Below the pieces are notes generated by a model. It saw nothing but the letters and a program-made list of their open reading frames with translations, searched no databases and was not told the DNA's origin. From Candidatus Hodarchaeota archaeon (lineage in GTDB: Archaea; Asgardarchaeota; Heimdallarchaeia; Hodarchaeales; Hodarchaeaceae): 13,607 nucleotides of DNA. Shown piece by piece: positions 144 to 13,153 of this stretch; the stretch's first letter is position 1; every line of letters begins with the position of its first letter. Location: the NCBI GenBank assembly GCA_029856365.1, contig JAHQWW010000102.1, positions 1 to 13,607 of the forward strand, given 5' to 3'. Position numbers and translations under genes: made by a program.

Positions 144-359
144 ATGAGTCCAACTGATTATACAACAGTTTCTATTCCAAGAATATTGTATGAAAAGATT
201 CAAGAACGCATTAAAGGAACTGGTTTCACATCGGTCTCAAGATTCACTGTTTATGTTCTCCGTGAGTTAGTAACAGAGACGAAGAAAGGAAAAGAACCTT
301 TTTCAGAACAAGATAAAGAAAAGCTATTAGAAAAGCTCGAAAAATTGGGGTACACATGA
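144..359 (+). CDS. Small ribbon-helix-helix (CopG-like) protein with C-terminal acidic helix ending LEKLGYT
   Basis: 71 aa. N-terminal alternating strand TTVSIP, then helix (RILYEKIQERI), turn (TGFTSVS) and second helix (RFTVYVLRELV), which is the RHH pattern. GGTGA RBS 4 nt before ATG. Paralogous to 604..810. Confidence 0.8.
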   Translation: MSPTDYTTVSIPRILYEKIQERIKGTGFTSVSRFTVYVLRELVTETKKGKEPFSEQDKEKLLEKLEKLGYT

Positions 360-603
360 AAAATTGAGGGGCCATCACTCTCAGGATCCAAAATTGTCTA
401 AAATCTCCATACCCAATTAATTATATCAATTCTTTGATGGTCATGATGTGATTAAAGTTTTATTGGTGTTTTATCGAATTTCTCTCTTATCATAATAGTT
501 AATTAAATATTCTTTTTTCTTCTTTCATAATTCTATGACCCTTCAAAATTATGATATAGTATTCATTTTATATGAAAATTATTATGGCTGCAGGTAAACA
601 ACG

Positions 604-810
604 ATGGACAAAGATAATAAAACAATAACGATTTCTAAACATTTATATGAGTTGTTGGAGCGAAAAATACAACAAGATAAATTCGATTCAGTTGATAATT
701 ATGTTGAACATCTCTTGTTGCAATTATTGCAAGTAGAGGGTTCCGAAGACCTTGATCCCGAAGAAGAAGAGAAAATAAAACAACGTCTCGAAAAACTAGG
801 TTATCTTTAG
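604..810 (+). CDS. Second small RHH (CopG-like) protein with C-terminal EEEEKIKQRLEKLGYL tail
   Basis: 68 aa. KTITISKHLYELL...FDSVDNYVEHLL aligns by eye with ORF 144..359. AGGT RBS-like element upstream. Ends 13 nt before sat. Confidence 0.8.
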   Translation: MDKDNKTITISKHLYELLERKIQQDKFDSVDNYVEHLLLQLLQVEGSEDLDPEEEEKIKQRLEKLGYL

Positions 811-823
811 AGGGTTTACAACA

Positions 824-1969
824 ATGGCTAGACCACATGGAGGGCAACTGGTAGACCAAGTATTATCAAATAATCAATTGAACCGCATAAAAGAAGAAAT
901 TAAAGAACTTAAACCAATTCCTATTGACTATGAAACATTTATTGAGCTTGAAAATATTGCAATAGGTACATTCAGTCCACTGGAAGGATATATGATACAG
1001 CAAGAAGTAGACTCTGTATTGGACACAGGTCGTTTGACGAATGACTTAGCATGGACCATTCCAATTACTTTCGCTGTTGACAAAGAACAGGCAAACCTTC
1101 TTGAAAAGGGGAATCAATTTGCTTTATCATATCAAGGAGAAGTAGTAGCACTTTTGGATCTTGAAGATAAGTTCATCCCAGATAAAAAACACTGGGTAAA
1201 AGCAGTCTTTAACACTACAGATGAGAAACATCCCGGAGTCAAACGAATATACAAAAGAAAAGAGGTCTTACTAGGAGGAACCATTAATCTCTTAAAGCGA
1301 CCTAAGGTTCCCTTTCCTGAAAATCGGTTAACACCTAAAGAAACTCGAGTGTTATTCAAAGTAAAAGGTTGGAAAACAATAGTAGGTTTTCAAACAAGAA
1401 ATGCTCCCCACATCGGACATGAGTATGTACAAAAAGCAGCTCTAACTTTTGTTGATGGGATCTTCATAAATCCTGTAATAGGAAAAAAGAAACCAGGAGA
1501 CTTTAAAGACGAAGTAATCTTAGAATCCTACAATGCACTAATTAATCATTACTATCTGCGAGAACGTTCAGTTCTTGTTACACTTCTGACAGAAATGCGA
1601 TATGCAGGGCCCAAGGAAGCTATTTTCCATTCTATCATGAGAAAAAACTATGGGTGCACTCATTTTATTATTGGTCGTGATCATGCGGGGGTAGGTAACT
1701 ATTACCCTCCATTTGCAGCTCAAGATATTTTTGATGACTATCCAGACATTGGAATTGTTCCATTGTTTTTTAGATCTTTCTCTCATTGTACGAAATGTGG
1801 ATCGGTGGTAAATGAGAAAATTTGTCCCCACTCTTCTGAACATCATATAAATTTCAGCGGTACAAAGATTCGGAAGATGCTTATTGAAGGAAAACATCCT
1901 CCTAAAGAGTTAATGAGACCTGAAGTAGCGGATATCATCCTCCAATATGAAAATCCATTTGTTGAATGA
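824..1969 (+). CDS. sat: Sulfate adenylyltransferase (ATP sulfurylase, Sat type)
   Basis: N-terminal PHGG, FSPLEG, catalytic FQTRNAPHIGHE (QxRN/HxxH), MRYAGPKEA, GRDHAGVG, FSGTKIR and MRPEV motifs. C-terminal CTKC-x8-CPH putative Zn site. Confidence 0.97.
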   Translation: MARPHGGQLVDQVLSNNQLNRIKEEIKELKPIPIDYETFIELENIAIGTFSPLEGYMIQQEVDSVLDTGRLTNDLAWTIPITFAVDKEQANLLEKGNQFALSYQGEVVALLDLEDKFIPDKKHWVKAVFNTTDEKHPGVKRIYKRKEVLLGGTINLLKRPKVPFPENRLTPKETRVLFKVKGWKTIVGFQTRNAPHIGHEYVQKAALTFVDGIFINPVIGKKKPGDFKDEVILESYNALINHYYLRERSVLVTLLTEMRYAGPKEAIFHSIMRKNYGCTHFIIGRDHAGVGNYYPPFAAQDIFDDYPDIGIVPLFFRSFSHCTKCGSVVNEKICPHSSEHHINFSGTKIRKMLIEGKHPPKELMRPEVADIILQYENPFVE

Positions 1970-1988: not shown

Positions 1989-3383
1989 ATGAATGATCGT
2001 AAAATGTTAGTTATAGGTCTTGACTGTGCTTCTCCACGATTAATTTTTGAAGAATTTCGAGATGATCTTCCAAACTTATCTAAATTGATCAATAATGGAC
2101 TTTCTGGTAATTTAAGATCATCAATGCCTCCAATTACTATCCCTGCCTGGATGGTCATGTTTACGGGGAAAACACCTGGAAAACTTGGATTATACGGTTT
2201 TCGTCATAGAAAGAGTAATTCATACACAGAGATTAGAATAGCTACTTCAAAAAATATCCAAGAACCAAAAATATGGGACATACTTAGTAAAACAGGACGA
2301 AAATCTTGTTTATTTGCAATCCCTCCAAGCTATCCTCCCCCAGTAGTAAATGGTTGGTTAGTAAGTTGTTTTTTGACCCCCAGTTCAAAAAGCAATTATA
2401 CTTATCCTCCTGAACTAAAGCAAGAACTGGAAAAGGATTGTGGTCCATATATTCCAGATATTGATTACCGCTCTGGTGATCGTGATAATATTTACAACCA
2501 GCTGTTTGGAATGCTAGATAATCACATGAGCATGATTATGCGATTGCTTAAAGAGAAACCCTGGGATTTTTTTGCATTTGTAGAAATTGGCGTAGATCGG
2601 GTTCATCATGCGTTTTGGCGCTACTATGACAAAACACATCATATGTATGAGCCCAACAGCAAATATCAACATGTTATTCGTGATTATTATAAAGCAATAG
2701 ACAAATATCTTGGTGAAATCCTTGAATTAATCGATGACAATACCTACATTCTTGTAGCTTCTGATCATGGTGTTAAAGCCATGAGAGGAGCATTTTGTAT
2801 AAATGAATGGTTGATTAAAGAAAAGTATCTAGTATTAAAACAAATCCCTGACAAACAAATGCGATTATCAGAGGCAGAAGTTAACTGGACAAAGACCAAA
2901 GCATGGGCATGGGGAGGATATTGCTCAAAACTTTTTTTAAATGTTCAAGGAAGGGAAGAGAAAGGAGTTATAAGAGCAAAAGATTATGAAAAGGAGCTTG
3001 AAAAACTAAAGAAAAAATTACTCAATCTAAAGGATGATAAGGGACGAACAATGAAAAATATTGTTTTTCGTCCCGAGGAATATTACGACAACCCCAAGGG
3101 AGACTATCCTGATTTAATGGTAATATTTGATGACCTTTATTGGCGAGCAGCTGGAACAATTGGCCATGATACCCTGTACCTCCTTGAGAATGATCTAGGT
3201 TCTGATGATGCAATGCATGATTGGGATGGGATGTATATTTTATATGATCCAAAGGAAAAACTTCCGAAAGGTAAGATAGATGCGAAAATAGAAGACATAG
3301 CTTCGACTATTCTCACGCTGTTTGATATAGAAAAACCTGCAGATTTCAATGGAAAAGTGATATTAAATGACACAAGAACATAA
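1989..3383 (+). CDS. Alkaline phosphatase superfamily protein, type I phosphodiesterase/nucleotide pyrophosphatase (NPP)-like, cytoplasmic; substrate unknown
   Basis: IGLD metal ligand, PPITIPAW (Thr nucleophile, codon 2136-2138), TGKTPGKLG, DRVHH, ASDHG and C-terminal MHDWDG motifs. No CxPxR sulfatase motif and no signal peptide. Start set to ATG 1989 (after GGCGGA, downstream of the sat stop) rather than 1947. Confidence 0.9.
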   Translation: MNDRKMLVIGLDCASPRLIFEEFRDDLPNLSKLINNGLSGNLRSSMPPITIPAWMVMFTGKTPGKLGLYGFRHRKSNSYTEIRIATSKNIQEPKIWDILSKTGRKSCLFAIPPSYPPPVVNGWLVSCFLTPSSKSNYTYPPELKQELEKDCGPYIPDIDYRSGDRDNIYNQLFGMLDNHMSMIMRLLKEKPWDFFAFVEIGVDRVHHAFWRYYDKTHHMYEPNSKYQHVIRDYYKAIDKYLGEILELIDDNTYILVASDHGVKAMRGAFCINEWLIKEKYLVLKQIPDKQMRLSEAEVNWTKTKAWAWGGYCSKLFLNVQGREEKGVIRAKDYEKELEKLKKKLLNLKDDKGRTMKNIVFRPEEYYDNPKGDYPDLMVIFDDLYWRAAGTIGHDTLYLLENDLGSDDAMHDWDGMYILYDPKEKLPKGKIDAKIEDIASTILTLFDIEKPADFNGKVILNDTRT

Positions 3384-3906
3384 TGGATTTGTACTATGGT
3401 TTACTGGCTTATCTGGTTCTGGAAAAAGTGAACTAGCAAGCAGGGTTGCTGAAAAATTAAGAACCTTAGGTAAAAAGGTTGAGATTCTTGATGGGGATAT
3501 AGTTCGTCAAAGTTTAACAAAGGATCTAGGTTTTACAGAGGCAGATCGAAAAACCAATCTTGAACGGGTCACTTTTGTAGCTAAACTGCTCAGTCGGAAT
3601 GGTGTGGCCACTTTAGTCTCGTTTATTTCTCCATACATTACTTCTAGGGAAGCAGCTCGGAAAGAAACAACCAATTTTATGGAAGTATTCGTCAAGTGCC
3701 CAGTGGAGGTTTGTATTGAGAGAGATACAAAAGGTCTTTATAAGAAAGCGATTGCTGGCGAAATAGAGAATTTTACTGGAATAAGCCACCCATATGAAGA
3801 ACCTCCAAACCCAGAAATAGTTGTTGAAACAGATAAAGAAACACCTGAAGAGTGTGTTACAAAGATTATAACATATATCAATGGGACAGGACTCTTAGAT
3901 AGATGA
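3367..3906 (+). CDS. cysC: Adenylyl-sulfate (APS) kinase
   Basis: WFTGLSGSGKS P-loop, LDGDIVR, DLGF, SFISPY, RDTKGLYKKA and FTGISHPYEEP motifs. Overlaps the upstream gene by 17 nt, consistent with an operon. Confidence 0.97.
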   Translation: MTQEHNGFVLWFTGLSGSGKSELASRVAEKLRTLGKKVEILDGDIVRQSLTKDLGFTEADRKTNLERVTFVAKLLSRNGVATLVSFISPYITSREAARKETTNFMEVFVKCPVEVCIERDTKGLYKKAIAGEIENFTGISHPYEEPPNPEIVVETDKETPEECVTKIITYINGTGLLDR

Positions 3907-3936: not shown

Positions 3937-5313
3937 TTAACATCGGAATTGTCCTTGTCCCACTCCTCGATAACTGAAACCTAATTTAACAACCTCTTCG
4001 GGATCAAATGTCCTTCTTCCATCAATTATTATGGGATTTCTTCTCATTATTGATTTTTTGTGAGCTAAATCCATGTCCTTGTATTCTTGATGTGCCGTAA
4101 CAACGATAAAAGCATCTGAATCGTTGATAACTTCATCTAAATTCGTTGAAAAAGGAAACTCAACTGCTTCTTGGCGAACATGCGGATCATGAACATTATA
4201 TTGATAATTCTTTTCGTCTAGGAGCTTTATCAAGTCTTTTGTGGGAGTATTTCGTGGATCATCTGAATCTTCTAAAAATGCCACTCCAAGGACAGCAATC
4301 TTTAAATCGTGGGGATATTGTCGGTTGGTTTCGGTAAAACACTCCTCCAATAGAGTTACAACATGTCTTGGCATATTCATGTTTCTAAAGCGACTAGCTT
4401 CTACTACATTAAGTTTTACAGCCTTTTTTCCGTACTGCGTTAATCCATATTTTAATAACCAAGGATCTTTCGGAAGACAATGGCCACCCACTCCTGCGCC
4501 AGGTAGATGCATATTACGATGAGGATTTCCTTTCCCCTTAATAAAAGGGAGATTATTCACAAGTTTTCTTACCTCATAAACGTCAACTCCTAACGACTCA
4601 CAAACTAAGGCTATTTCATTTGCGAAAGCAACATTGACATCTCGATAGGTGTTCTCAACTACTTTTGCAAGCTCAGCTGTTAACGCAGTTGTTGGGATGA
4701 TATCGTTTTTCAAAACTTGTTTATAAAACCAAACTGCTTTTTCTGAACTCTTGGACCCCACCCCACCCACTATTCGGGGATAGTTCAAGATATTATAAAT
4801 CAACCTACCAACCATGACTCTTTCATAAGCAAAAGCGAGGAAAAAATCTTTCTCACACTCCAGTCCAGATATCTTTTCTAATATAGGTTTTACAATGAAA
4901 TCTGTTGTACCAGGAGCGCAGGTTGATTCGATGATGACTGTTGTACCTTTTGAGAGATGTTCCCCAATTTGATGACAAACTTCTTTTAATGACACATATT
5001 GTGGAATGTTATTTTCATCGGTTGGTGTTTGAACATCAATTAATACATAGTCCATTGCTTTAACGCTAGAAATGTCATCCGTTACTGAAAACGTTTTTTT
5101 CTCTTTGACAACTCTGGTAATTAATTCTGGAAGTCCAGGTTCGTTTTTAATTGGACATTTTCCCTGATTAATATGGTCAATTTTCCACCCTGATCGTTTT
5201 GAACGTCTTTGAATACCAATAACCTCAAAGATGTCAGTATCAGCCAACAAGACGGCAATGGGAATCCCAACATAGCCCATGCCAATTACAGCTACTTTAG
5301 TGGCCATTTTCAT
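3937..5313 (-). CDS. Nucleotide-sugar 6-dehydrogenase, UDP-ManNAc/UDP-GlcNAc dehydrogenase (WecC/TviB-like) family
   Basis: Rossmann VIGMGYVG, VQTP, IIESTCAPGTT, AELAKVVENTYRDVNVAFANE, catalytic GVGGHCLPKDP, DDPRNTP and IIIDGR motifs. Alternative start at 5307. Confidence 0.92.
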   Translation of the reverse strand: MKMATKVAVIGMGYVGIPIAVLLADTDIFEVIGIQRRSKRSGWKIDHINQGKCPIKNEPGLPELITRVVKEKKTFSVTDDISSVKAMDYVLIDVQTPTDENNIPQYVSLKEVCHQIGEHLSKGTTVIIESTCAPGTTDFIVKPILEKISGLECEKDFFLAFAYERVMVGRLIYNILNYPRIVGGVGSKSSEKAVWFYKQVLKNDIIPTTALTAELAKVVENTYRDVNVAFANEIALVCESLGVDVYEVRKLVNNLPFIKGKGNPHRNMHLPGAGVGGHCLPKDPWLLKYGLTQYGKKAVKLNVVEASRFRNMNMPRHVVTLLEECFTETNRQYPHDLKIAVLGVAFLEDSDDPRNTPTKDLIKLLDEKNYQYNVHDPHVRQEAVEFPFSTNLDEVINDSDAFIVVTAHQEYKDMDLAHKKSIMRRNPIIIDGRRTFDPEEVVKLGFSYRGVGQGQFRC

Positions 5314-5450
5314 CAGGTCTAAGCAAATTAATCTCGAATTAATTAAGTCATGTAGAGATGTAAAAGTTGGTAATTTGGAAACTCCTTTTTAAAAATAATT
5401 AAAACTTCAAACATGAAAGTAGGATATAGCTATTAAGAGATGTTCCCAAT

Positions 5451-6674
5451 TCATCCCACGTTGAAATAATGGGACTTTGAATGAGATTCGTTCACGATAG
5501 ATTGTGAGCTGAGACGTAATTCAGCAACCTTGGAGAGTACTAGAAGTCCGAATAGACTCCCAAGAAACTGATCTTCGGGGGTTGGAAAGAGAAGAAGACA
5601 AAAAGCTGACACTAAGACAATTCTATTGATTAAAGGAAGATGTCTAGTAGTAATGATAGCGATAAAAAATAGAATTACCACAAACGGGGCATACAACATT
5701 TTTACATTTAGAAAATAAAATAATGCTGAAATTGGATTGAAATAATAAGACGTTATTTCTGATCGTAGGTCTAAATTCAGATTAAAGAGAATCGTGTTTT
5801 GGACAACATTAAACCAGCCGAAAGGCCAAATAATTAACAAATCAATAAACAGAATTACGACAGCATCAATGAAATACGACCATTCATGCTTTTCAATAAT
5901 TCTGGAATAAAAATAAATAGCTACAAATGGTAATATGTAGAATTTAGCAAGAAGACCAATACTTATAGCTATAATCAGACCAATTCTTTTCGTTTTGGTT
6001 GAATTTATTTCCTCCTCAAGCATTATTATACTTGCTATTATAAGTGATAAAAATGTTGTACAAGCGCTATAATATAAGGAGGTTACAATTAGTAATAGTA
6101 CGTATGGAAGTTTCGCATCCCAGTTCAAGTCTGGAGTTTTGATAGCAAATACGAGTGCTACAAATACGTTAACTATAAAATTAACAAAAACTAACACTCT
6201 ATAATCCCACTGATTCAATAAAATGTAGAATAATAGATAAATTGGAATTTCTGCGGGTGGATAGTTAAAATAAGAGTATGATATGGAACCATCAGCTAAT
6301 TGATGATAAATTACTGGTTCTAAATAAGGATTTTGGCCATTAGAAAGAGCAGAAAATAATGTTCTGTAAACATGAACTATTTCTGTATTCCAATCCATGA
6401 ATAAGGTTATCACAATGGCTGATATTATGAAAGGAACAACCCAAGTACGAAATAACCTATTGTAGAAAAAATCAGATGCTGAAATCCACCTTGAAACCCA
6501 AATAACAAATAGAACTATTGTAAGAATGATAACAGGGGCAAAAGAATATATTGCTTCAGGTACAGGTTCTAAAAAAACTATAATAAGGTTTAGAATAATT
6601 AAAGTTATTGCTAATGATAATTCGAGCCATTTTTGATGAATTTTCATCCCCTCATTTTCGGAAGAATTATTCAT
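5451..6674 (-). CDS. Polytopic membrane protein, GT87/DUF2029-like (GT-C fold) lipid-phosphate-sugar-dependent glycosyltransferase
   Basis: 407 aa, about 10 or more hydrophobic segments. A loop after the third TM segment carries D...LSNGQNPY...YFNYPP, and GLLAKFY occurs later; these resemble GT87 signatures. The CDS is secure; the family call is by eye. Confidence 0.6.
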   Translation of the reverse strand: MNNSSENEGMKIHQKWLELSLAITLIILNLIIVFLEPVPEAIYSFAPVIILTIVLFVIWVSRWISASDFFYNRLFRTWVVPFIISAIVITLFMDWNTEIVHVYRTLFSALSNGQNPYLEPVIYHQLADGSISYSYFNYPPAEIPIYLLFYILLNQWDYRVLVFVNFIVNVFVALVFAIKTPDLNWDAKLPYVLLLIVTSLYYSACTTFLSLIIASIIMLEEEINSTKTKRIGLIIAISIGLLAKFYILPFVAIYFYSRIIEKHEWSYFIDAVVILFIDLLIIWPFGWFNVVQNTILFNLNLDLRSEITSYYFNPISALFYFLNVKMLYAPFVVILFFIAIITTRHLPLINRIVLVSAFCLLLFPTPEDQFLGSLFGLLVLSKVAELRLSSQSIVNESHSKSHYFNVG

Positions 6675-6938
6675 TAATCACAATCCCTTGGAGCTCGGTT
6701 TAGAAAATTTAAACGAACAAGATTGGCTTGTTTAACGGCTAAATACTGCTCAATAGAGCAGGCCATACAACATCCTTGACAATATAAAAAAAATTGTGTA
6801 TTCTTTCTTTGTAAATGGGCCTTGAAACATATCCTGGAGAGGTACATCCATCAAGCTCCAAATTGAAACTCTGTCACATAGTGAAATGTCTCCAACCATG
6901 GAGAGATTAAAAGATAGTAACTCGGTAAATATATTGAT
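6674..6938 (-). pseudogene. Degenerate C-terminal SPASM/Twitch Fe-S domain of a radical SAM protein (frameshifted remnant; not in the ORF track)
   Basis: Manual translation gives ...ELLSFNLSMVGDISLCDRVSIWSLMDVPLQDMFQGPFTKKEYT[frameshift at T8 run, 6786-6793]FLYCQGCCMACSIEQYLAVKQANLVRLNFLNRAPRDCD*. This resembles the SPASM pattern GdV.pC...l.e.pL.ei....C..C...C. Its TAA overlaps the ATG of the next gene (TAATG at 6672-6676). Confidence 0.6.
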
Positions 6939-7050
6939 TCATTTATTGATCCTATGAACTGAACACAAAAGATTCATGATTTATCAATAATATCGAAATT
7001 AAGACTGTTCCTTTAGCAAAAACCAATGAAGATAAAATTTGTCTAAAAAG

Positions 7051-7062
7051 GTGTAATTACAC
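7051..7062. promoter_or_regulatory. Perfect 12-bp palindrome GTGTAATTACAC in divergent intergenic region; candidate transcription factor site
   Basis: Seen directly in the sequence, between the divergently transcribed GT87-like and IPCT-like blocks. Function is inferred only. Confidence 0.3.
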
Positions 7063-7325
7063 TAAAATAACTAAGTAAAAGGAATTTTTCTTATTTTCCA
7101 GTCAGAGAATACTAAGACCCTGTAAAACAGAATTAAGTTAAAAACAAGTATTCAAAAGTAATTAAAAATTCCCCTCCTATCCGATAATGGAGATCAAACA
7201 TGAAAGTAAGATATACCACAAATGTTTTTGACTCATTTCATAAAGATTATGTACATTTTCTGAACATAATAAAGAGTTGTAAGAAGTTCTGATGTTTGAT
7301 TTGTAAAGCTTCAATGGTGTCTTTG

Positions 7326-8081
7326 ATGGCTCAGACTTTCGTGATTTTAGCAGCAGGTTTCGGATCAAGATTAAATCAATTACCTTCTTCTATTCCCAAA
7401 GCGTTAATAAAGCTCCGCAACCGACCAATTATAGATTTTGCCTTGGATAACATTGCAAATTATCTCCCAGAGATTAAAACAACCATTATAATTACTGGTT
7501 ATAAGAAAAAACTCATAGAAGAATATGTCGAACTTAATGCCTCAAAGTACTCGTTCGACTTGCATTGTGTTTATGCGTTGGATTATAAAAAAGGAAATGG
7601 GAAATCACTCTCTGCAGCCGAGTTTTATGTGAATGATCGCTTTTTTTTAGCCATGTGCGATCATTTATTTGAAGCACCTCATTATCACACAATTAAACTG
7701 GAATCGGACAGGGAAACTGATCTGTCTTTATGCATTGATTTCACTCCGAATTCTCACATTCAGCTAGAAGATGCAACGAAAGTTTTCACAGATAGCGAGA
7801 ATAATATCTTACATATTGGGAAAAATCTGTCAACTTGGACTGCCATTGATACTGGTCTTTTCTGTCTTTCTCCATGTGTTTTTAAACGATTAAAACAAGT
7901 TTCAGGTAAAAATGTATCAGTTACTGATGGAGTTAATCAGATGATACGTCATGGGGATTGTGTTAAGGGGGTAGATGTATCAGGAAGCTTCTGGGCTGAT
8001 ATTGACACTCTTACAGATCTAAAAAACGTAGAGGTTTATCTGTCGGCTGATGAAAGTTCGAGAGAATCTGAGGGAGAATAA
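7326..8081 (+). CDS. NTP transferase, most similar to CTP:L-myo-inositol-1-phosphate cytidylyltransferase (IPCT; LicC-like family)
   Basis: VILAAGFGSRL, PKALIKL..RPII, KKGNGKSL, LAMCDH, LEDATKV, AIDTGLF and WADIDT..DL motifs. The GNG.SL, M.DH, ATKV and DTG.F elements are typical of IPCT. Start chosen at ATG 7326 (alternatives 7314 and TTG 7296). Confidence 0.8.
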   Translation: MAQTFVILAAGFGSRLNQLPSSIPKALIKLRNRPIIDFALDNIANYLPEIKTTIIITGYKKKLIEEYVELNASKYSFDLHCVYALDYKKGNGKSLSAAEFYVNDRFFLAMCDHLFEAPHYHTIKLESDRETDLSLCIDFTPNSHIQLEDATKVFTDSENNILHIGKNLSTWTAIDTGLFCLSPCVFKRLKQVSGKNVSVTDGVNQMIRHGDCVKGVDVSGSFWADIDTLTDLKNVEVYLSADESSRESEGE

Positions 8082-8152
8082 AACTATCATTTTTGAACTA
8101 CCAAAACCGATGTAAAATAGTAACCAAATTAGGAATATTAGGAGTTCTTGGT

Positions 8153-8878
8153 ATGTCTTTACAAAAAATATTCACGAAGTTCTCACATAGTAAGATAGAA
8201 AAATCTGAAGATAGCTTGTGGAAAGAAGATATTACTTGCCGAATCATGCAAAAAATATCCATGCCTATCGCCCGATTTCTCTATCCGTTCGGTTTTATTA
8301 CTCCAAATCGAATCACATGGTTTCATTATTTCTTAATTATTCTTGGATCAATAATTTTAATTATCGCTGAGGAAAACATTATATTACTCTTTTTAGTTGG
8401 GTTATGTCTTTGGTTGTCTGCTCTTGTTGATGGTCTCGATGGCCAACTAGCGAGACTGAGAGGAACATCAAGCAAAAAGGGAGAGTGGCTGGATAGAGTA
8501 TTAGATGAAGGAAAAGGCTATCCCTTTTTCTTAGCAATAGGATTACATATCCAAGACTCAAGTGGAAATTTCGCTCTATACCTATTCGAAAATCATCTAA
8601 TGACGTTAAATGTTTGGTTTACAATGACTATCGTGTTTGCTTGTGCTTCTTGGCTAAGTATCATGACTTCCTTCGGTACTTGGATATTAAAAGAACCCAT
8701 TGTAGTGAGTAACGGAAATGTCTACATTGTATGGTTCTTCTTACTTTTCAATATATTAGATTGGTTTTTATTCCTCTTTACCATTGGTGTATTTTTAGCA
8801 ATGGTGTGGACACTCTTTGAAAAGACTTTTTTCACCCCCGCAAATCCGATAGAAACAAAGGAGGCGCCAGATTCATAA
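8153..8878 (+). CDS. CDP-alcohol phosphotransferase family membrane protein (DIPP synthase / inositol-phospholipid synthase-like)
   Basis: Full signature DGLDGQLAR-x8-GEWLDRVLD (DxxDGxxAR...GxxxDxxxD) and ITPNRIT, with multiple TM segments. ATG 8153 follows AGGAG (the track start is TTG 8093). Confidence 0.88.
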   Translation: MSLQKIFTKFSHSKIEKSEDSLWKEDITCRIMQKISMPIARFLYPFGFITPNRITWFHYFLIILGSIILIIAEENIILLFLVGLCLWLSALVDGLDGQLARLRGTSSKKGEWLDRVLDEGKGYPFFLAIGLHIQDSSGNFALYLFENHLMTLNVWFTMTIVFACASWLSIMTSFGTWILKEPIVVSNGNVYIVWFFLLFNILDWFLFLFTIGVFLAMVWTLFEKTFFTPANPIETKEAPDS

Positions 8879-10136: not shown

Positions 10137-11408
10137 TCAATTTATTTTGTAGGAAGACAAATCTAATTCATTGATTAATGTTGATCTGGCTTCTTTAGCC
10201 CCATCAACCATTGCTAATAGCATTGTATGGAGATCGGTGAGTTTTTGAACGGGTCTTAATCCACAGTCAGGAGCTACTAATAATAAGAACGCTCCTTCTT
10301 CTCCTAATTCATCATATAAGGCTCTTGTTTGATAGAGAAGTCGATCTCGAATAAGAAATTTAAGTTGATTATACGCGGTTTCAGACCGCAACTCTTCATC
10401 AGTAAAACGACGATCAGCATGAACTTCTAAAACTCCAAGGGCAAATTTACAACGGCTCCCCTCTTTATATGCTTTGATTACACTTTCTGTTCCTTCTTTA
10501 TATGCAGGACGGTTACTATGAGACGTTCCAAGGGTTTTAGAATCACGATTAGCGTACTCAAGACTGCAATAATCCCATGGAACCTGTGGTAGATCTTCAT
10601 ATAGAATGTCATAACGATGAGAAAAGCATGTATGAAAACCTATCTTGCAATTATGTTCTTTTGCTATTCCTCCAACGCTTTTGAAAAACCTGGTGTAAGC
10701 TTCCTTATAGATCTCTCTGTCACCTGGAATAGTAGTGTAAGCAGGTTCGTCGGAAATAATAAAGCGAACCCCCGCCTTAATCGCTTCTCTCACCTCAGGG
10801 ATGAACACATTGTCTACTAAATCAAATAAGAATTGAGAATCACTTGAGGGTTTAATTGTCCAATTAAAAATTGTATAAGGACCAGTAAAGCAAAATCGGA
10901 GGGGCTTTTTGGCTATTTTTTGAGTGTACTCCAATTCATCGATGTAAATCTTTTTTTTACGTTGAACATCCACGTTTTTTACACGAACGCCTGGTTTATA
11001 AAAACGATCATCAAAAGAGCGGATATGCTCTTTTTCTAAATAAATACCATCGATATCTTTGGCAGCATGCTCGTACATCTCTCGTCTCCACGCTTCTCCA
11101 CTAAAAACATGATCTAAGCCTGTACTTTCTAAAAAACGAACATTAAAGCGTAATCTTAGCTTTAACACCTCCATTTGCCACTCATCGATATCTTTCGCGT
11201 TGGAAACTGGTCTATTTAGAAGAATTGAGATAGCTTCTTCAGGATCTCCCAGATCTAACTTAGCCCACCAATAATTAATTTCCTCAAGATGTTCTGAGGG
11301 GATTTTTCTCCCTTGAAGGGCAAGAATCGTCGCGTTAAGCTTCCTGATAGAACCCACCTCATGAGTTGGTAGCAAGCTATTGAATGTATCATATTGATTA
11401 GTTGTCAT
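10137..11408 (-). CDS. metE: Cobalamin-independent methionine synthase, single catalytic (core/C-terminal) domain
   Basis: THEVGS, SGEAWR, FTGPYT and DEPA motifs, and Zn ligands HTC, LEYA and APDCGL. 423 aa, so it lacks the N-terminal barrel of ~750-aa MetE. Lies 41 nt upstream of metK on the same strand. Confidence 0.85.
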   Translation of the reverse strand: MTTNQYDTFNSLLPTHEVGSIRKLNATILALQGRKIPSEHLEEINYWWAKLDLGDPEEAISILLNRPVSNAKDIDEWQMEVLKLRLRFNVRFLESTGLDHVFSGEAWRREMYEHAAKDIDGIYLEKEHIRSFDDRFYKPGVRVKNVDVQRKKKIYIDELEYTQKIAKKPLRFCFTGPYTIFNWTIKPSSDSQFLFDLVDNVFIPEVREAIKAGVRFIISDEPAYTTIPGDREIYKEAYTRFFKSVGGIAKEHNCKIGFHTCFSHRYDILYEDLPQVPWDYCSLEYANRDSKTLGTSHSNRPAYKEGTESVIKAYKEGSRCKFALGVLEVHADRRFTDEELRSETAYNQLKFLIRDRLLYQTRALYDELGEEGAFLLLVAPDCGLRPVQKLTDLHTMLLAMVDGAKEARSTLINELDLSSYKIN

Positions 11409-11539
11409 AACATCATCTATTCTACCTGAAATTATTCAAGAGCTTTGTAAAAGGTAAACATACTTATTATGTATGAAATCAAAGATTCTTTTGAATAGAG
11501 ACTCGGAGGATTATTAATTTCCATGAAGATTGAAATATT

Positions 11540-11553
11540 TTGCATTAATGCAA
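11540..11553. promoter_or_regulatory. Perfect 14-bp palindrome TTGCATTAATGCAA upstream of the metE-metK operon; candidate operator
   Basis: Seen directly in the sequence, about 130 nt upstream of the metE start. Function is inferred. Confidence 0.35.
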
Positions 11554-11594
11554 GTCAATGTGAAAGTTTGGAGTTTATCTTTCATATTTTACTG

Positions 11595-11617
11595 AAAAAA
11601 AAATTCCTCACGGGAAT
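11595..11617 (-). terminator. Putative terminator for the LAGLIDADG gene
   Basis: The minus strand reads ATTCC-CGTGA-GGAAT running into a T9 tract (11603-11595), about 55 nt after the stop at 11672. Confidence 0.45.
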
Positions 11618-11671
11618 ATTCTTTTTACTTTTCTATAATGGGATAGGGGGTATTCTTAGATTTTTTTATTC

Positions 11672-13153
11672 TTATTTATCATTTACAAATAATTTACGCA
11701 AATCTTCCCGATCGTAAAGTACTTGTAGGGAAAATCCTCCTTCTTGGGCAGTGGCTTTTTTGGTTGGTATAATGCCACGTGCCACAAGCCTAGTTTTTGC
11801 CTCCTCAACCATAGTAACGGTTATAAAATTATGTTTTCGAGATTGTGGGTGAGAGCGATGACCATAATTTTTATGAAATTCTTGGATTAGAATTTCAGGG
11901 TCACAGGAAGGAGAAATTGCCCAAAATTTTTGTCGTTTTGAAGTACCCTTCAGCTTGACCTCACGAATGAGACCCATTTTGAGTAAGTAATTTAGTCTTT
12001 TGTAAAATTTCTTGGGATTTTGCCCTTCTAGTAGAGAATAGAGTTCAGGATGGTTCCGAAGTTCTTTTGTATTACGAATTTGGTGATCTCCAAGTATCCT
12101 AATGATGGCTATACAAACTTCTTTTACTCTGCGAATCTGATATCCTCTCTTGAGTGAGAAAGATGATGCTAACAATTGAAATTTCTCTTGCTTATGCCAA
12201 AGACCCAATAGAGGGTCCTGTGAAAAGCACTGATATAAGTCAACATGAAATTGTTCAATCCCAGCTTGCCGAAGTTGAAAATAATGTACATCTGGACTTT
12301 TCACCCGAGGTGGGTAAGGTGAATGATCATATCCCAGTTGGTCGCACAAACGCATGATGTATTCTAAAGTAGTTTTATCTTTCTGAGTGAAAGATATTGT
12401 TCTACTCACAGAACCATCATCAAGAAGAAAAGCAGCAAGGAATTGTACTTTCCAATCTTTATACGATAGAGGAAGATCAAAAACATATTGGATGAATTTT
12501 GGAGTACCTAGATCCTGTATCGTTATCCCTGGCATTGTACCTATTATAGCATAAGTTAATGCCTTAGGGTAGTAAACCTTTATGCTTTTACCACCTGATA
12601 GACGACTTAAGCGTTTAATGAGAGCACGTATATGATTCTGATGTTTAAAAAGTTGATTCCATTGAAGTTTTGGGAATACGTGATCCTTATCTTCAGAAAC
12701 ACTACCATCACCGATGATATGACAAATTAACCTCCAAGCATAAATATCAATGTTGAAAGGAAACGATAAAGCTTCTAGTTCACCATTTCGGTGAAAACGT
12801 ACTGCTTGAGTTGATTTCTCCACCACCTCGAGATCTAAACCTATGCCTAAGCAGATTTTTTGAAGGTTGGGAACTATTATCGTTTGATGGGGATTGTTAC
12901 GGATGTTAGATAAGATATTTGGGCTTATCTTCAGCTGTTGAGAGATTACTGACAGAGTGAATCCTTTCAAGTAGTTTGAGAAGATTTCCCACATTTCCCG
13001 TCGTAATAATACATAGAGGTTTGTAAACTCCCATAAATGTACCGTGTGAAACGGTTTACCATTGTGAGACGACCATGGGCTGTGAAAACCCCGAATTGCT
13101 CTTTTTGGAAGTGGTGGTAGTTTCCTATGGTCTATATAATGGTGTTTACTCAT
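11672..13153 (-). CDS. Free-standing double-motif LAGLIDADG homing-endonuclease-like protein with N-terminal XRE-like HTH and C-terminal winged-helix/HTH domains
   Basis: Motif 1 is AWRLICHIIGDGSV (~12698-12740) and motif 2 is QFLAAFLLDDGSV (~12407-12445), followed by ISFTQK. Also an N-terminal TLSVISQQLKISPNILSNI HTH, a FYKRLNYLLKMGLI wHTH recognition helix and a terminal TKKATAQEGGFSLQVLY HTH. GAGG RBS upstream. No intein splice motifs. Confidence 0.7.
   Translation of the reverse strand: MSKHHYIDHRKLPPLPKRAIRGFHSPWSSHNGKPFHTVHLWEFTNLYVLLRREMWEIFSNYLKGFTLSVISQQLKISPNILSNIRNNPHQTIIVPNLQKICLGIGLDLEVVEKSTQAVRFHRNGELEALSFPFNIDIYAWRLICHIIGDGSVSEDKDHVFPKLQWNQLFKHQNHIRALIKRLSRLSGGKSIKVYYPKALTYAIIGTMPGITIQDLGTPKFIQYVFDLPLSYKDWKVQFLAAFLLDDGSVSRTISFTQKDKTTLEYIMRLCDQLGYDHSPYPPRVKSPDVHYFQLRQAGIEQFHVDLYQCFSQDPLLGLWHKQEKFQLLASSFSLKRGYQIRRVKEVCIAIIRILGDHQIRNTKELRNHPELYSLLEGQNPKKFYKRLNYLLKMGLIREVKLKGTSKRQKFWAISPSCDPEILIQEFHKNYGHRSHPQSRKHNFITVTMVEEAKTRLVARGIIPTKKATAQEGGFSLQVLYDREDLRKLFVNDK

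Follow-up and report, generated by a model that had tools for sequence, protein, structure and literature searches.

A family of putative RHH regulators at the head of sat-cysC operons shares its C-terminal tail with enzymes of sulfate-ester and PAPS metabolism

Organization of the locus

The DNA analysed here (contig C128; "the window" denotes this whole stretch of 13,607 nucleotides) belongs to a 4.24-Mb genome of Promethearchaeota type with 35% GC. The following features, given in window coordinates, are the subject of this work.

144..359, plus strand: P0001 (71 aa), an RHH-LGY protein, diverged paralog of P0002 found in this genus only
294..353, plus strand: tail of P0001, ending in LGYT, the weaker match to the tail HMM (22 bits, E 1e-3)
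489..507, no strand assigned: 19-nt block ATCATAATAGTTAATTAAA, candidate operator/promoter, invariant in three genomes of the genus, with diverging flanks
604..810, plus strand: P0002 (68 aa), putative RHH-LGY regulator and leader gene of the operon, with orthologs heading sat-AlkP-cysC in relatives
745..807, plus strand: tail of P0002, an acidic run, an amphipathic helix and LGYL (tail HMM 36.5 bits, E 2.6e-8 in its own genome)
824..1969, plus strand: sat (ATP sulfurylase; PF14306 and PF01747, E 9e-89), starting 13 nt after the P0002 stop
1989..3383, plus strand: tail-less AlkP-fold enzyme of the subfamily here called AlkP458 (PF01663)
3367..3906, plus strand: cysC (APS kinase; PF01583, E 1.3e-60)

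The reading frame of the AlkP-fold enzyme opens at 1947, and the size of its orthologs (approximately 459 aa) suggests that translation probably starts at Met15 (1989). Translation of the two small reading frames confirmed that, as the initial annotation had stated, both proteins terminate in an acidic helix followed by LEKLGY and one further residue, T or L: P0001 ends in ...EKLLEKLEKLGYT (...LEKLEKLGYT; Tyr codon TAC, 351-353) and P0002 in ...EKIKQRLEKLGYL (...QRLEKLGYL; Tyr codon TAT, 802-804). LEKLGY is the longest identical run between the two paralogs, which share 33% identity overall, in agreement with its earlier description as their best-conserved stretch. A search of all six frames of the whole 4.24-Mb genome with a 21-column tail HMM returned just two matches, P0001 and P0002, and no further tail-bearing protein; given this two-place result, the likeness of the two tails is more than would be expected by chance. 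Orthologs of P0001 are present at the equivalent position in genomes G138, G210 and G061.

A family of small proteins with an RHH-like core and an LGY tail

An exhaustive phmmer search (E < 1e-3) collected 190 clusters of related sequences, nearly all of them 62-90 aa long (typically about 70) and aligning end to end. Their common architecture places an RHH-like core first, then a disordered acidic linker and finally an amphipathic helix of three turns with LGY as its cap; both P0001 and P0002 have this length and organization. The Tyr had been described as penultimate, which is correct for these two proteins but does not extend to the family as a rule: in 141 of the 149 sequences examined, LGY is followed by one (77 sequences), two (52), three (10) or four (2) C-terminal residues. 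The Gly and the Tyr are the only invariant positions in alignments of 120 full-length proteins and 140 tails, so that conservation of the Tyr among homologs, on which the initial proposal depended, is borne out; the two Leu residues located 3 and 6 positions before the Tyr are more than 90% conserved. The last 21 residues follow the consensus [FY][ST]xE[ED]EEx-hydrophobic-[KR]x[RK]L[RK]xLGY-hydrophobic.

LxxLGY is a common helix-capping (Schellman-type) pattern, which explains weak matches to CheR_N, PG_binding_2, HMA and POTRA. The invariant Gly-Tyr pair fits a Schellman-type C-cap, while the absence of Phe at the Tyr position keeps a chemical role for the hydroxyl open. Several known C-terminal signals were rejected from the motif itself: an HbYX proteasome-activator tail by the invariant Gly before the Tyr and the 1-4 residues after it, a PIP-box by the lack of a Qxx[LIM]xx[FY][FY] pattern, and a PDZ ligand by the variable offset from the C-terminus.

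No Pfam or NCBIfam model covers the family, and P0002 itself matches none. P0001 matches Pfam RHH_1 with an E-value of 0.007, under the cut-off, and RHH_1 is matched by 5 of 120 family members. In the PDB, the family profile matches the NikR RHH domain best, with a weak E-value of 0.01, and the ESM Atlas automatically names clusters of this family "CopG family". The AF2 model of P0002, a monomer with a mean pLDDT of 70, presents an extended N-terminus and helices at residues 12-24, 30-41 and 52-64, the last of which is the tail helix and is preceded by a disordered stretch at 45-50 (pLDDT < 50); no beta-strand is called in this monomer model, which would be in keeping with an obligate dimer but does not prove the fold. 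The resulting kinship with RHH proteins is weak but consistent, and suggests that P0002 and its diverged duplicate P0001 are RHH (CopG-like) transcription regulators of a widespread, uncharacterised family. Two longer proteins, P0141 (185 aa) and P0214 (214 aa), are fused forms of RHH-LGY; in one of the two forms an extra RHH domain precedes two complete RHH-LGY units in tandem, and in the other a larger N-terminal region is followed by a single unit.

RHH-LGY genes head sat-cysC operons and are preceded by a conserved putative operator

Analysis of gene order revealed that the RHH-LGY gene lies immediately 5' of sat in approximately 30 of 40 Asgard loci, spanning many families. The same arrangement was found in about 60 of 80 loci from Thermoplasmatota, Bathyarchaeia, Hadarchaeota, Aminicenantes and other groups, a set gathered with a closer subset of family sequences as query, as well as in three Acidobacteriota-type bacterial loci and in close relatives of the host. 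The order seen in the window, with P0002 leading sat, the AlkP-fold gene and cysC, conforms to this pattern, and genes of the family take the lead position in sat-(AlkP)-cysC operons from several phyla of archaea and from some bacteria. An AlkP gene is located between sat and cysC in only about 17 of those 80 loci, many of which have the simple order RHH-sat-cysC; the presence of AlkP-superfamily genes elsewhere in genomes with the latter order was uninformative, such genes being nearly ubiquitous.

Among 201 Thermoplasmatota genomes, 64 have a tail hit, 67 have Sat and 50 have both, and in 47 of these 50, which include kin genomes that are not independent, a small tail-bearing reading frame lies at most 1.6 kb from sat. 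In seven Thermoplasmatota genomes (G356, G362, G371, G397, G407, G427 and G447) the open frames that contain the Sat genes measure 577-713 aa and may represent Sat fusions; none of the seven has a tail hit, and another type of Sat therefore seems to come without the regulator.

Upstream regions of RHH-LGY genes contain TAATTA hexamers at 10-bp phase, in arrays of 2-5, just before the start codon. Scanning with the 16-bp pattern TAATTA-N4-TAATTA, allowing at most one mismatch, identified 104 sites in 63 of 81 upstream regions (8.6 per kb), compared with 10 sites in the remaining 842 kb of the same loci (0.012 per kb), an upstream enrichment of roughly 700-fold. About 15 of the 24 sat-linked Asgard RHH-LGY genes have the element. 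This operator constitutes the strongest evidence that proteins of the family may bind DNA and regulate their own genes. The canonical operator is absent from the window at up to one mismatch. The candidate block at 489-507 contains one perfect TAATTA and a degenerate partner, positions 490-505 differing from TAATTA-N4-TAATTA by two mismatches. No operator was found upstream of P0001, a region that is not conserved.

The tail is shared with enzymes of sulfate-ester and PAPS metabolism

The tail HMM, run against all six frames of 300 Asgard and 201 Thermoplasmatota genomes, retrieved mostly small frames, together with frames of 330-580 aa. All 18 of the large tail-bearing frames (>300 aa) tested, from these approximately 500 archaeal genomes, matched PF01663 or PF00884. 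Starting from one 573-aa NPP-like enzyme of the COG3379 type, the uncharacterised "predicted AlkP superfamily phosphohydrolase/phosphomutase" (PF01663), the tail was identified on 105 of 120 archaeal and bacterial homologs, which terminate in ...YSxEExxxIxxRLxxLGY[LI]x. An HMM of these long NPP-like enzymes gives the small proteins 22-30 bits through the tail only. The enzyme tail of the form EEE..RL..LGY described in the initial annotation is a real one, homologous to that of the small proteins. In regulators and enzymes alike the Tyr is invariant and never replaced by Phe, and the preceding Gly is likewise invariant. The AF2 model of the tailed 573-aa enzyme (105-row alignment; pLDDT 89) places the tail in a terminal helix at 556-568 (pLDDT about 82) behind a linker of lower confidence (about 66).

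The tail also occurs on two proteins with a PAPS-reductase domain (PF01507), of 225 and 269 aa (L073:4166-4975 and L187:1074-1751, both on the minus strand), which end in ...IMERLRLLGYM (L073) and ...IIERLQSLGYF (L187), and on a 202-aa APS kinase (L184:566-1174, minus strand), where the full 21-residue element is appended after the normal end of the protein. As judged by sequence, this homologous 21-residue tail is confined to proteins of sulfate-ester/PAPS metabolism. Many operon APS kinases finish in a tail-like ..RL.ELGYL helix (L054, L058, L060, L063, L095 and L096); the CysC encoded in the window has no such end and finishes in ...NGTGLLDR.

Three truly tail-less members among the 120 NPP-like homologs resemble one another, and the two that were looked up directly follow a tail-bearing paralog. 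At L093:3235-6509 and L094:2437-5747, a tailed NPP-like gene with its tail-less paralog directly behind it is part of a polysaccharide-synthesis cluster with glycosyltransferases and a flippase, an arrangement that suggests a hetero-oligomer with one tail per pair. Tail-less long NPP-like enzymes located near RHH-LGY genes present a basic, K-rich terminal helix, for instance ...KKKIEKLKETKKI or ...IAKLKKLGKI (L055:8704-10281 and 10694-12280; L068:464-2044; L098:8272-9804; L166:3278-4864 and 5277-6854), which looks like a diverged, Tyr-less version of the tail.

Tail-less enzymes and the supply of the tail in trans

The initial annotation had proposed that the small proteins supply in trans a tail that the adjacent enzyme lacks. 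The AlkP-fold enzyme encoded between sat and cysC indeed ends without a tail, at ...FNGKVILNDTRT (...GKVILNDTRT). A tail was found, however, on none of 120 homologs of its subfamily (about 458 aa), indicating that the operon enzyme did not lose a tail and that nothing has moved from one protein to the other. AlkP458 enzymes of archaea and of bacteria share more than 50% identity. Two database entries (P0082 and P0118, 686-689 aa) are fusions of the subfamily with APS kinase, which argues that AlkP458 works directly with APS or PAPS.

We examined the relation between fused tails and neighbouring regulators in a sample drawn independently of the tail, comprising 62 strong PF01663 hits from 100 good Asgard genomes and counting as neighbours RHH-LGY genes within 4 kb. 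Among frames of intermediate size (425-488 aa), none has a fused tail, 33 have a neighbouring RHH-LGY gene and 7 have neither. For long frames (490 aa or more) the corresponding numbers are 3, 2 and 10, and for short frames (under 400 aa) 0, 1 and 6. A fused tail and an adjacent RHH-LGY gene never coincide in this sample, nor was any RHH-LGY gene detected in the 17 loci chosen for a tail-bearing enzyme. The predicted anticorrelation holds to that extent, but most of the exclusivity reflects the subfamily to which an enzyme belongs, and it lacks significance when the long class is considered by itself (3 fused, 2 adjacent, 10 neither). The associated expectation that tail-less enzymes preferentially neighbour RHH-LGY genes is not supported among long enzymes, since 10 of the 12 tail-less long NPP-like genes lack such a neighbour. 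Five of those ten lie in genomes without any tail hit, which argues that the tail is an accessory and not a necessary part of the catalytic machinery.

A natural comparison within the genus is suggestive. Genome G255 (96% complete, no Sat found) encodes one NPP-like enzyme, with a fused tail, and has no RHH-LGY gene. In genome G240 (70% complete, no Sat found) and in genome G138, where Sat is encoded elsewhere in the genome, a tail-less NPP-like gene directly follows an RHH-LGY gene. The G240 and G138 enzymes are 36-37% identical to that of G255, with part of the G240 C-terminus masked in the record.

We modelled the complex of residues 15-478 of the AlkP-fold enzyme with residues 37-68 of P0002, providing alignments for both and running three controls. 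The pair obtained a score of 0.47 (0.45-0.51 across runs) against 0.02 for the best of the three controls, which amounts to weak support for docking, in a range where scores are more often wrong than right. In the calibration, 58 of 80 solved complexes and 2 of 110 mismatched pairs attained the mark; only 7 of the 80 solved complexes, together with both passing mismatches, did so at a score of 0.60 or under. At least 81% of contacts are common to the individual runs, and the pLDDT of the partner is at least 59. For this one pair, the complex prediction called for in the initial annotation thus passed weakly. The broader proposal of a docking or catalytic module acting in trans gains from this model and is weakened by the lack of tails throughout AlkP458 and by the many operons that have no AlkP gene.

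An autoregulator with a portable docking tail

The reading that we favour, with a probability of roughly 0.55 for the regulator assignment and the docking model taken jointly, is that P0002 is an autoregulator whose portable tail docks on enzymes of its own pathway. The RHH core would bind tandem TAATTA hexamers at 10-bp phase before its own gene and so autoregulate the operon, the site being degenerate in this genome. The last 21 residues, carried on a flexible acidic linker, would constitute a portable helix, present as well at the C-terminus of enzymes of sulfate-ester/PAPS metabolism, and probably serve as a protein-docking peptide. On the regulator, such a peptide could tie repressor activity to the AlkP-fold enzyme of the pathway, here the tail-less enzyme of the operon, in a manner akin to the CysE tail or to CymR with CysK. 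What the sequences show directly is the family, its link to the operon, the operator pattern and the sharing of the tail, whereas docking as such, the choice of target and a possible influence on DNA binding are proposals. Among the possibilities raised initially, a coupling of enzyme state to RHH DNA binding fits best, on account of the conserved operator of the family, and it is the link to the enzyme that we infer.

The alternative to which we give most weight, while considering it unlikely, is that the tail is a self-association helix comparable to the tetramerisation helix of P22 Mnt, making RHH dimers cooperative on TAATTA arrays and oligomerising the enzymes with no contact between regulator and enzyme. 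Operator arrays of 2-5 sites at 10-bp phase suit cooperative binding, and an amphipathic three-turn helix on a flexible linker is appropriate to the task; tail-less and tailed NPP-like paralogs are encoded side by side, as oligomers would be, and the basic K-rich terminal helix of tail-less enzymes beside RHH-LGY genes could pair with an acidic tail. Self-association nevertheless leaves unexplained why 21 near-identical residues are limited to one pathway across four unrelated folds; an invariant Tyr that is never Phe is unusual for a purely hydrophobic bundle, and the tail model docked, albeit weakly, on the tail-less AlkP-fold enzyme. A less probable variant retains docking with a different receptor, the tail binding Sat, CysC, or APS, PAPS or PAP held between two tails. 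Sat is the most constant neighbour and is without a tail in every locus examined, APS kinase and PAPS-reductase-domain proteins are tailed, and many operons lack AlkP. Yet a tail-bearing enzyme is present in G255 (96% complete) and an RHH-LGY and NPP-like pair in G240 (only 70% complete), and no Sat was found in either genome; these genomes weaken Sat as a universal receptor.

We regard as quite improbable the proposal that the tail is a catalytic module in trans, its Tyr shuttling sulfate or another group covalently in the manner of DltX and PatC. The invariance of the Gly-Tyr pair in regulators and enzymes would suit such a role, as would an operon context that makes PAPS and an acidic run before the Tyr, a feature of known Tyr-sulfation sites. 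Many NPP-like enzymes, and whole genomes, nevertheless lack any tail, AlkP458 is never tailed, many operons have the regulator and no AlkP, and the Gly-Tyr pair fits a plain helix C-cap. The small proteins are moreover highly charged, soluble putative DNA binders with a conserved family operator and no hydrophobic span, and no membrane-bound O-acyltransferase (MBOAT) family was detected among their neighbours, so that the analogy with DltX/PatC-type small membrane proteins is rejected. We hold it similarly improbable that an AlkP-fold enzyme reversibly sulfates or otherwise modifies the tail Tyr using APS or PAPS, which would allow the regulator and the tailed enzymes to read the pool of activated sulfate. 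Least probable of all is convergence, in which a common helix-capping pattern would have arisen independently with no common function. LxxLGY does occur in many unrelated domains, and the C-terminal helix of ordinary APS kinases is often a similar ..ELGYL; the similarity, however, extends over 21 residues, with the [FY][ST]xEEEE cap among them, the HMM of the enzyme family recognizes the small proteins at 22-30 bits, and all large tailed proteins from the unbiased six-frame scan belong to the sulfate pathway.

Relation to known systems

The docking-tail autoregulator would resemble RHH (MetJ/Arc/CopG) repressors with C-terminal extensions in its small N-terminal RHH-type core, its tandem phased operator repeats before its own operon and a C-terminal add-on that sets regulatory behaviour. 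Such extensions include the tetramerisation helix of P22 Mnt and the ligand domain of NikR. Unlike these repressors, P0001 and P0002 fall under the cut-off of every curated model, and the 21-residue add-on recurs at the end of enzymes from the pathway under regulation, a feature that has not been reported for Mnt, NikR or CopG. In the cysteine synthase complex a flexible C-terminal tail of CysE docks on CysK, filling the cleft of the enzyme until a metabolite displaces it, and in Bacillus subtilis the transcription factor CymR is controlled by binding to CysK. The present case shares with both the setting of sulfur assimilation and, to judge from one weak model, the docking of a tail on an enzyme; it differs in the folds, the tail sequence and the enzyme, and in that the tail is also fused to enzymes.

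RHH type II antitoxins (ParD, RelB, CcdA) similarly combine an RHH N-terminus with a disordered C-terminal partner-binding segment, for which the tail is a candidate here, and with control of their own expression that depends on the partner. Conservation of the tail extends across phyla, without the co-variation with a toxin seen in those systems, and no toxin family was found, the neighbours being sat, the AlkP-fold enzyme and cysC; this assignment was rejected. The operon enzyme is itself a shorter relative, of the same fold, of the COG3379-type enzymes, 105 of 120 of which bear the same tail, whereas its subfamily of about 458 aa ends after the catalytic domain with neither linker nor tail.

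A literature search turned up no publication dealing with the motif, with COG3379 enzymes of the present kind or with RHH proteins that regulate sat/cysC. Across several phyla of archaea, and in some bacteria, the first gene of PAPS operons appears to encode a repressor from a single undescribed family whose operator can be recognised, which would make it possible to predict this regulon in lineages without cultured members, Asgard archaea among them. Through the common tail, a set of uncharacterised proteins of the AlkP-fold, sulfatase and PAPS-reductase types is marked as belonging to a single system, and the 21-residue peptide offers a concrete handle for finding what connects them. Should the tail indeed dock the repressor on an enzyme, it would add a new example to the gene control systems of sulfur metabolism that are coupled to an enzyme.

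Other features of the locus

The operon adjoins sugar-nucleotide and CDP-alcohol genes (3937-8878 of the window). In a close relative, a classical PF00685 sulfotransferase (L002:730-1746) is encoded about 4 kb upstream of the small genes, and a conventional PAPS user therefore exists in this neighbourhood. A 493-aa protein encoded on the minus strand at 11672-13153 has weak LAGLIDADG_3 and HTH matches and is unrelated to the findings reported here.
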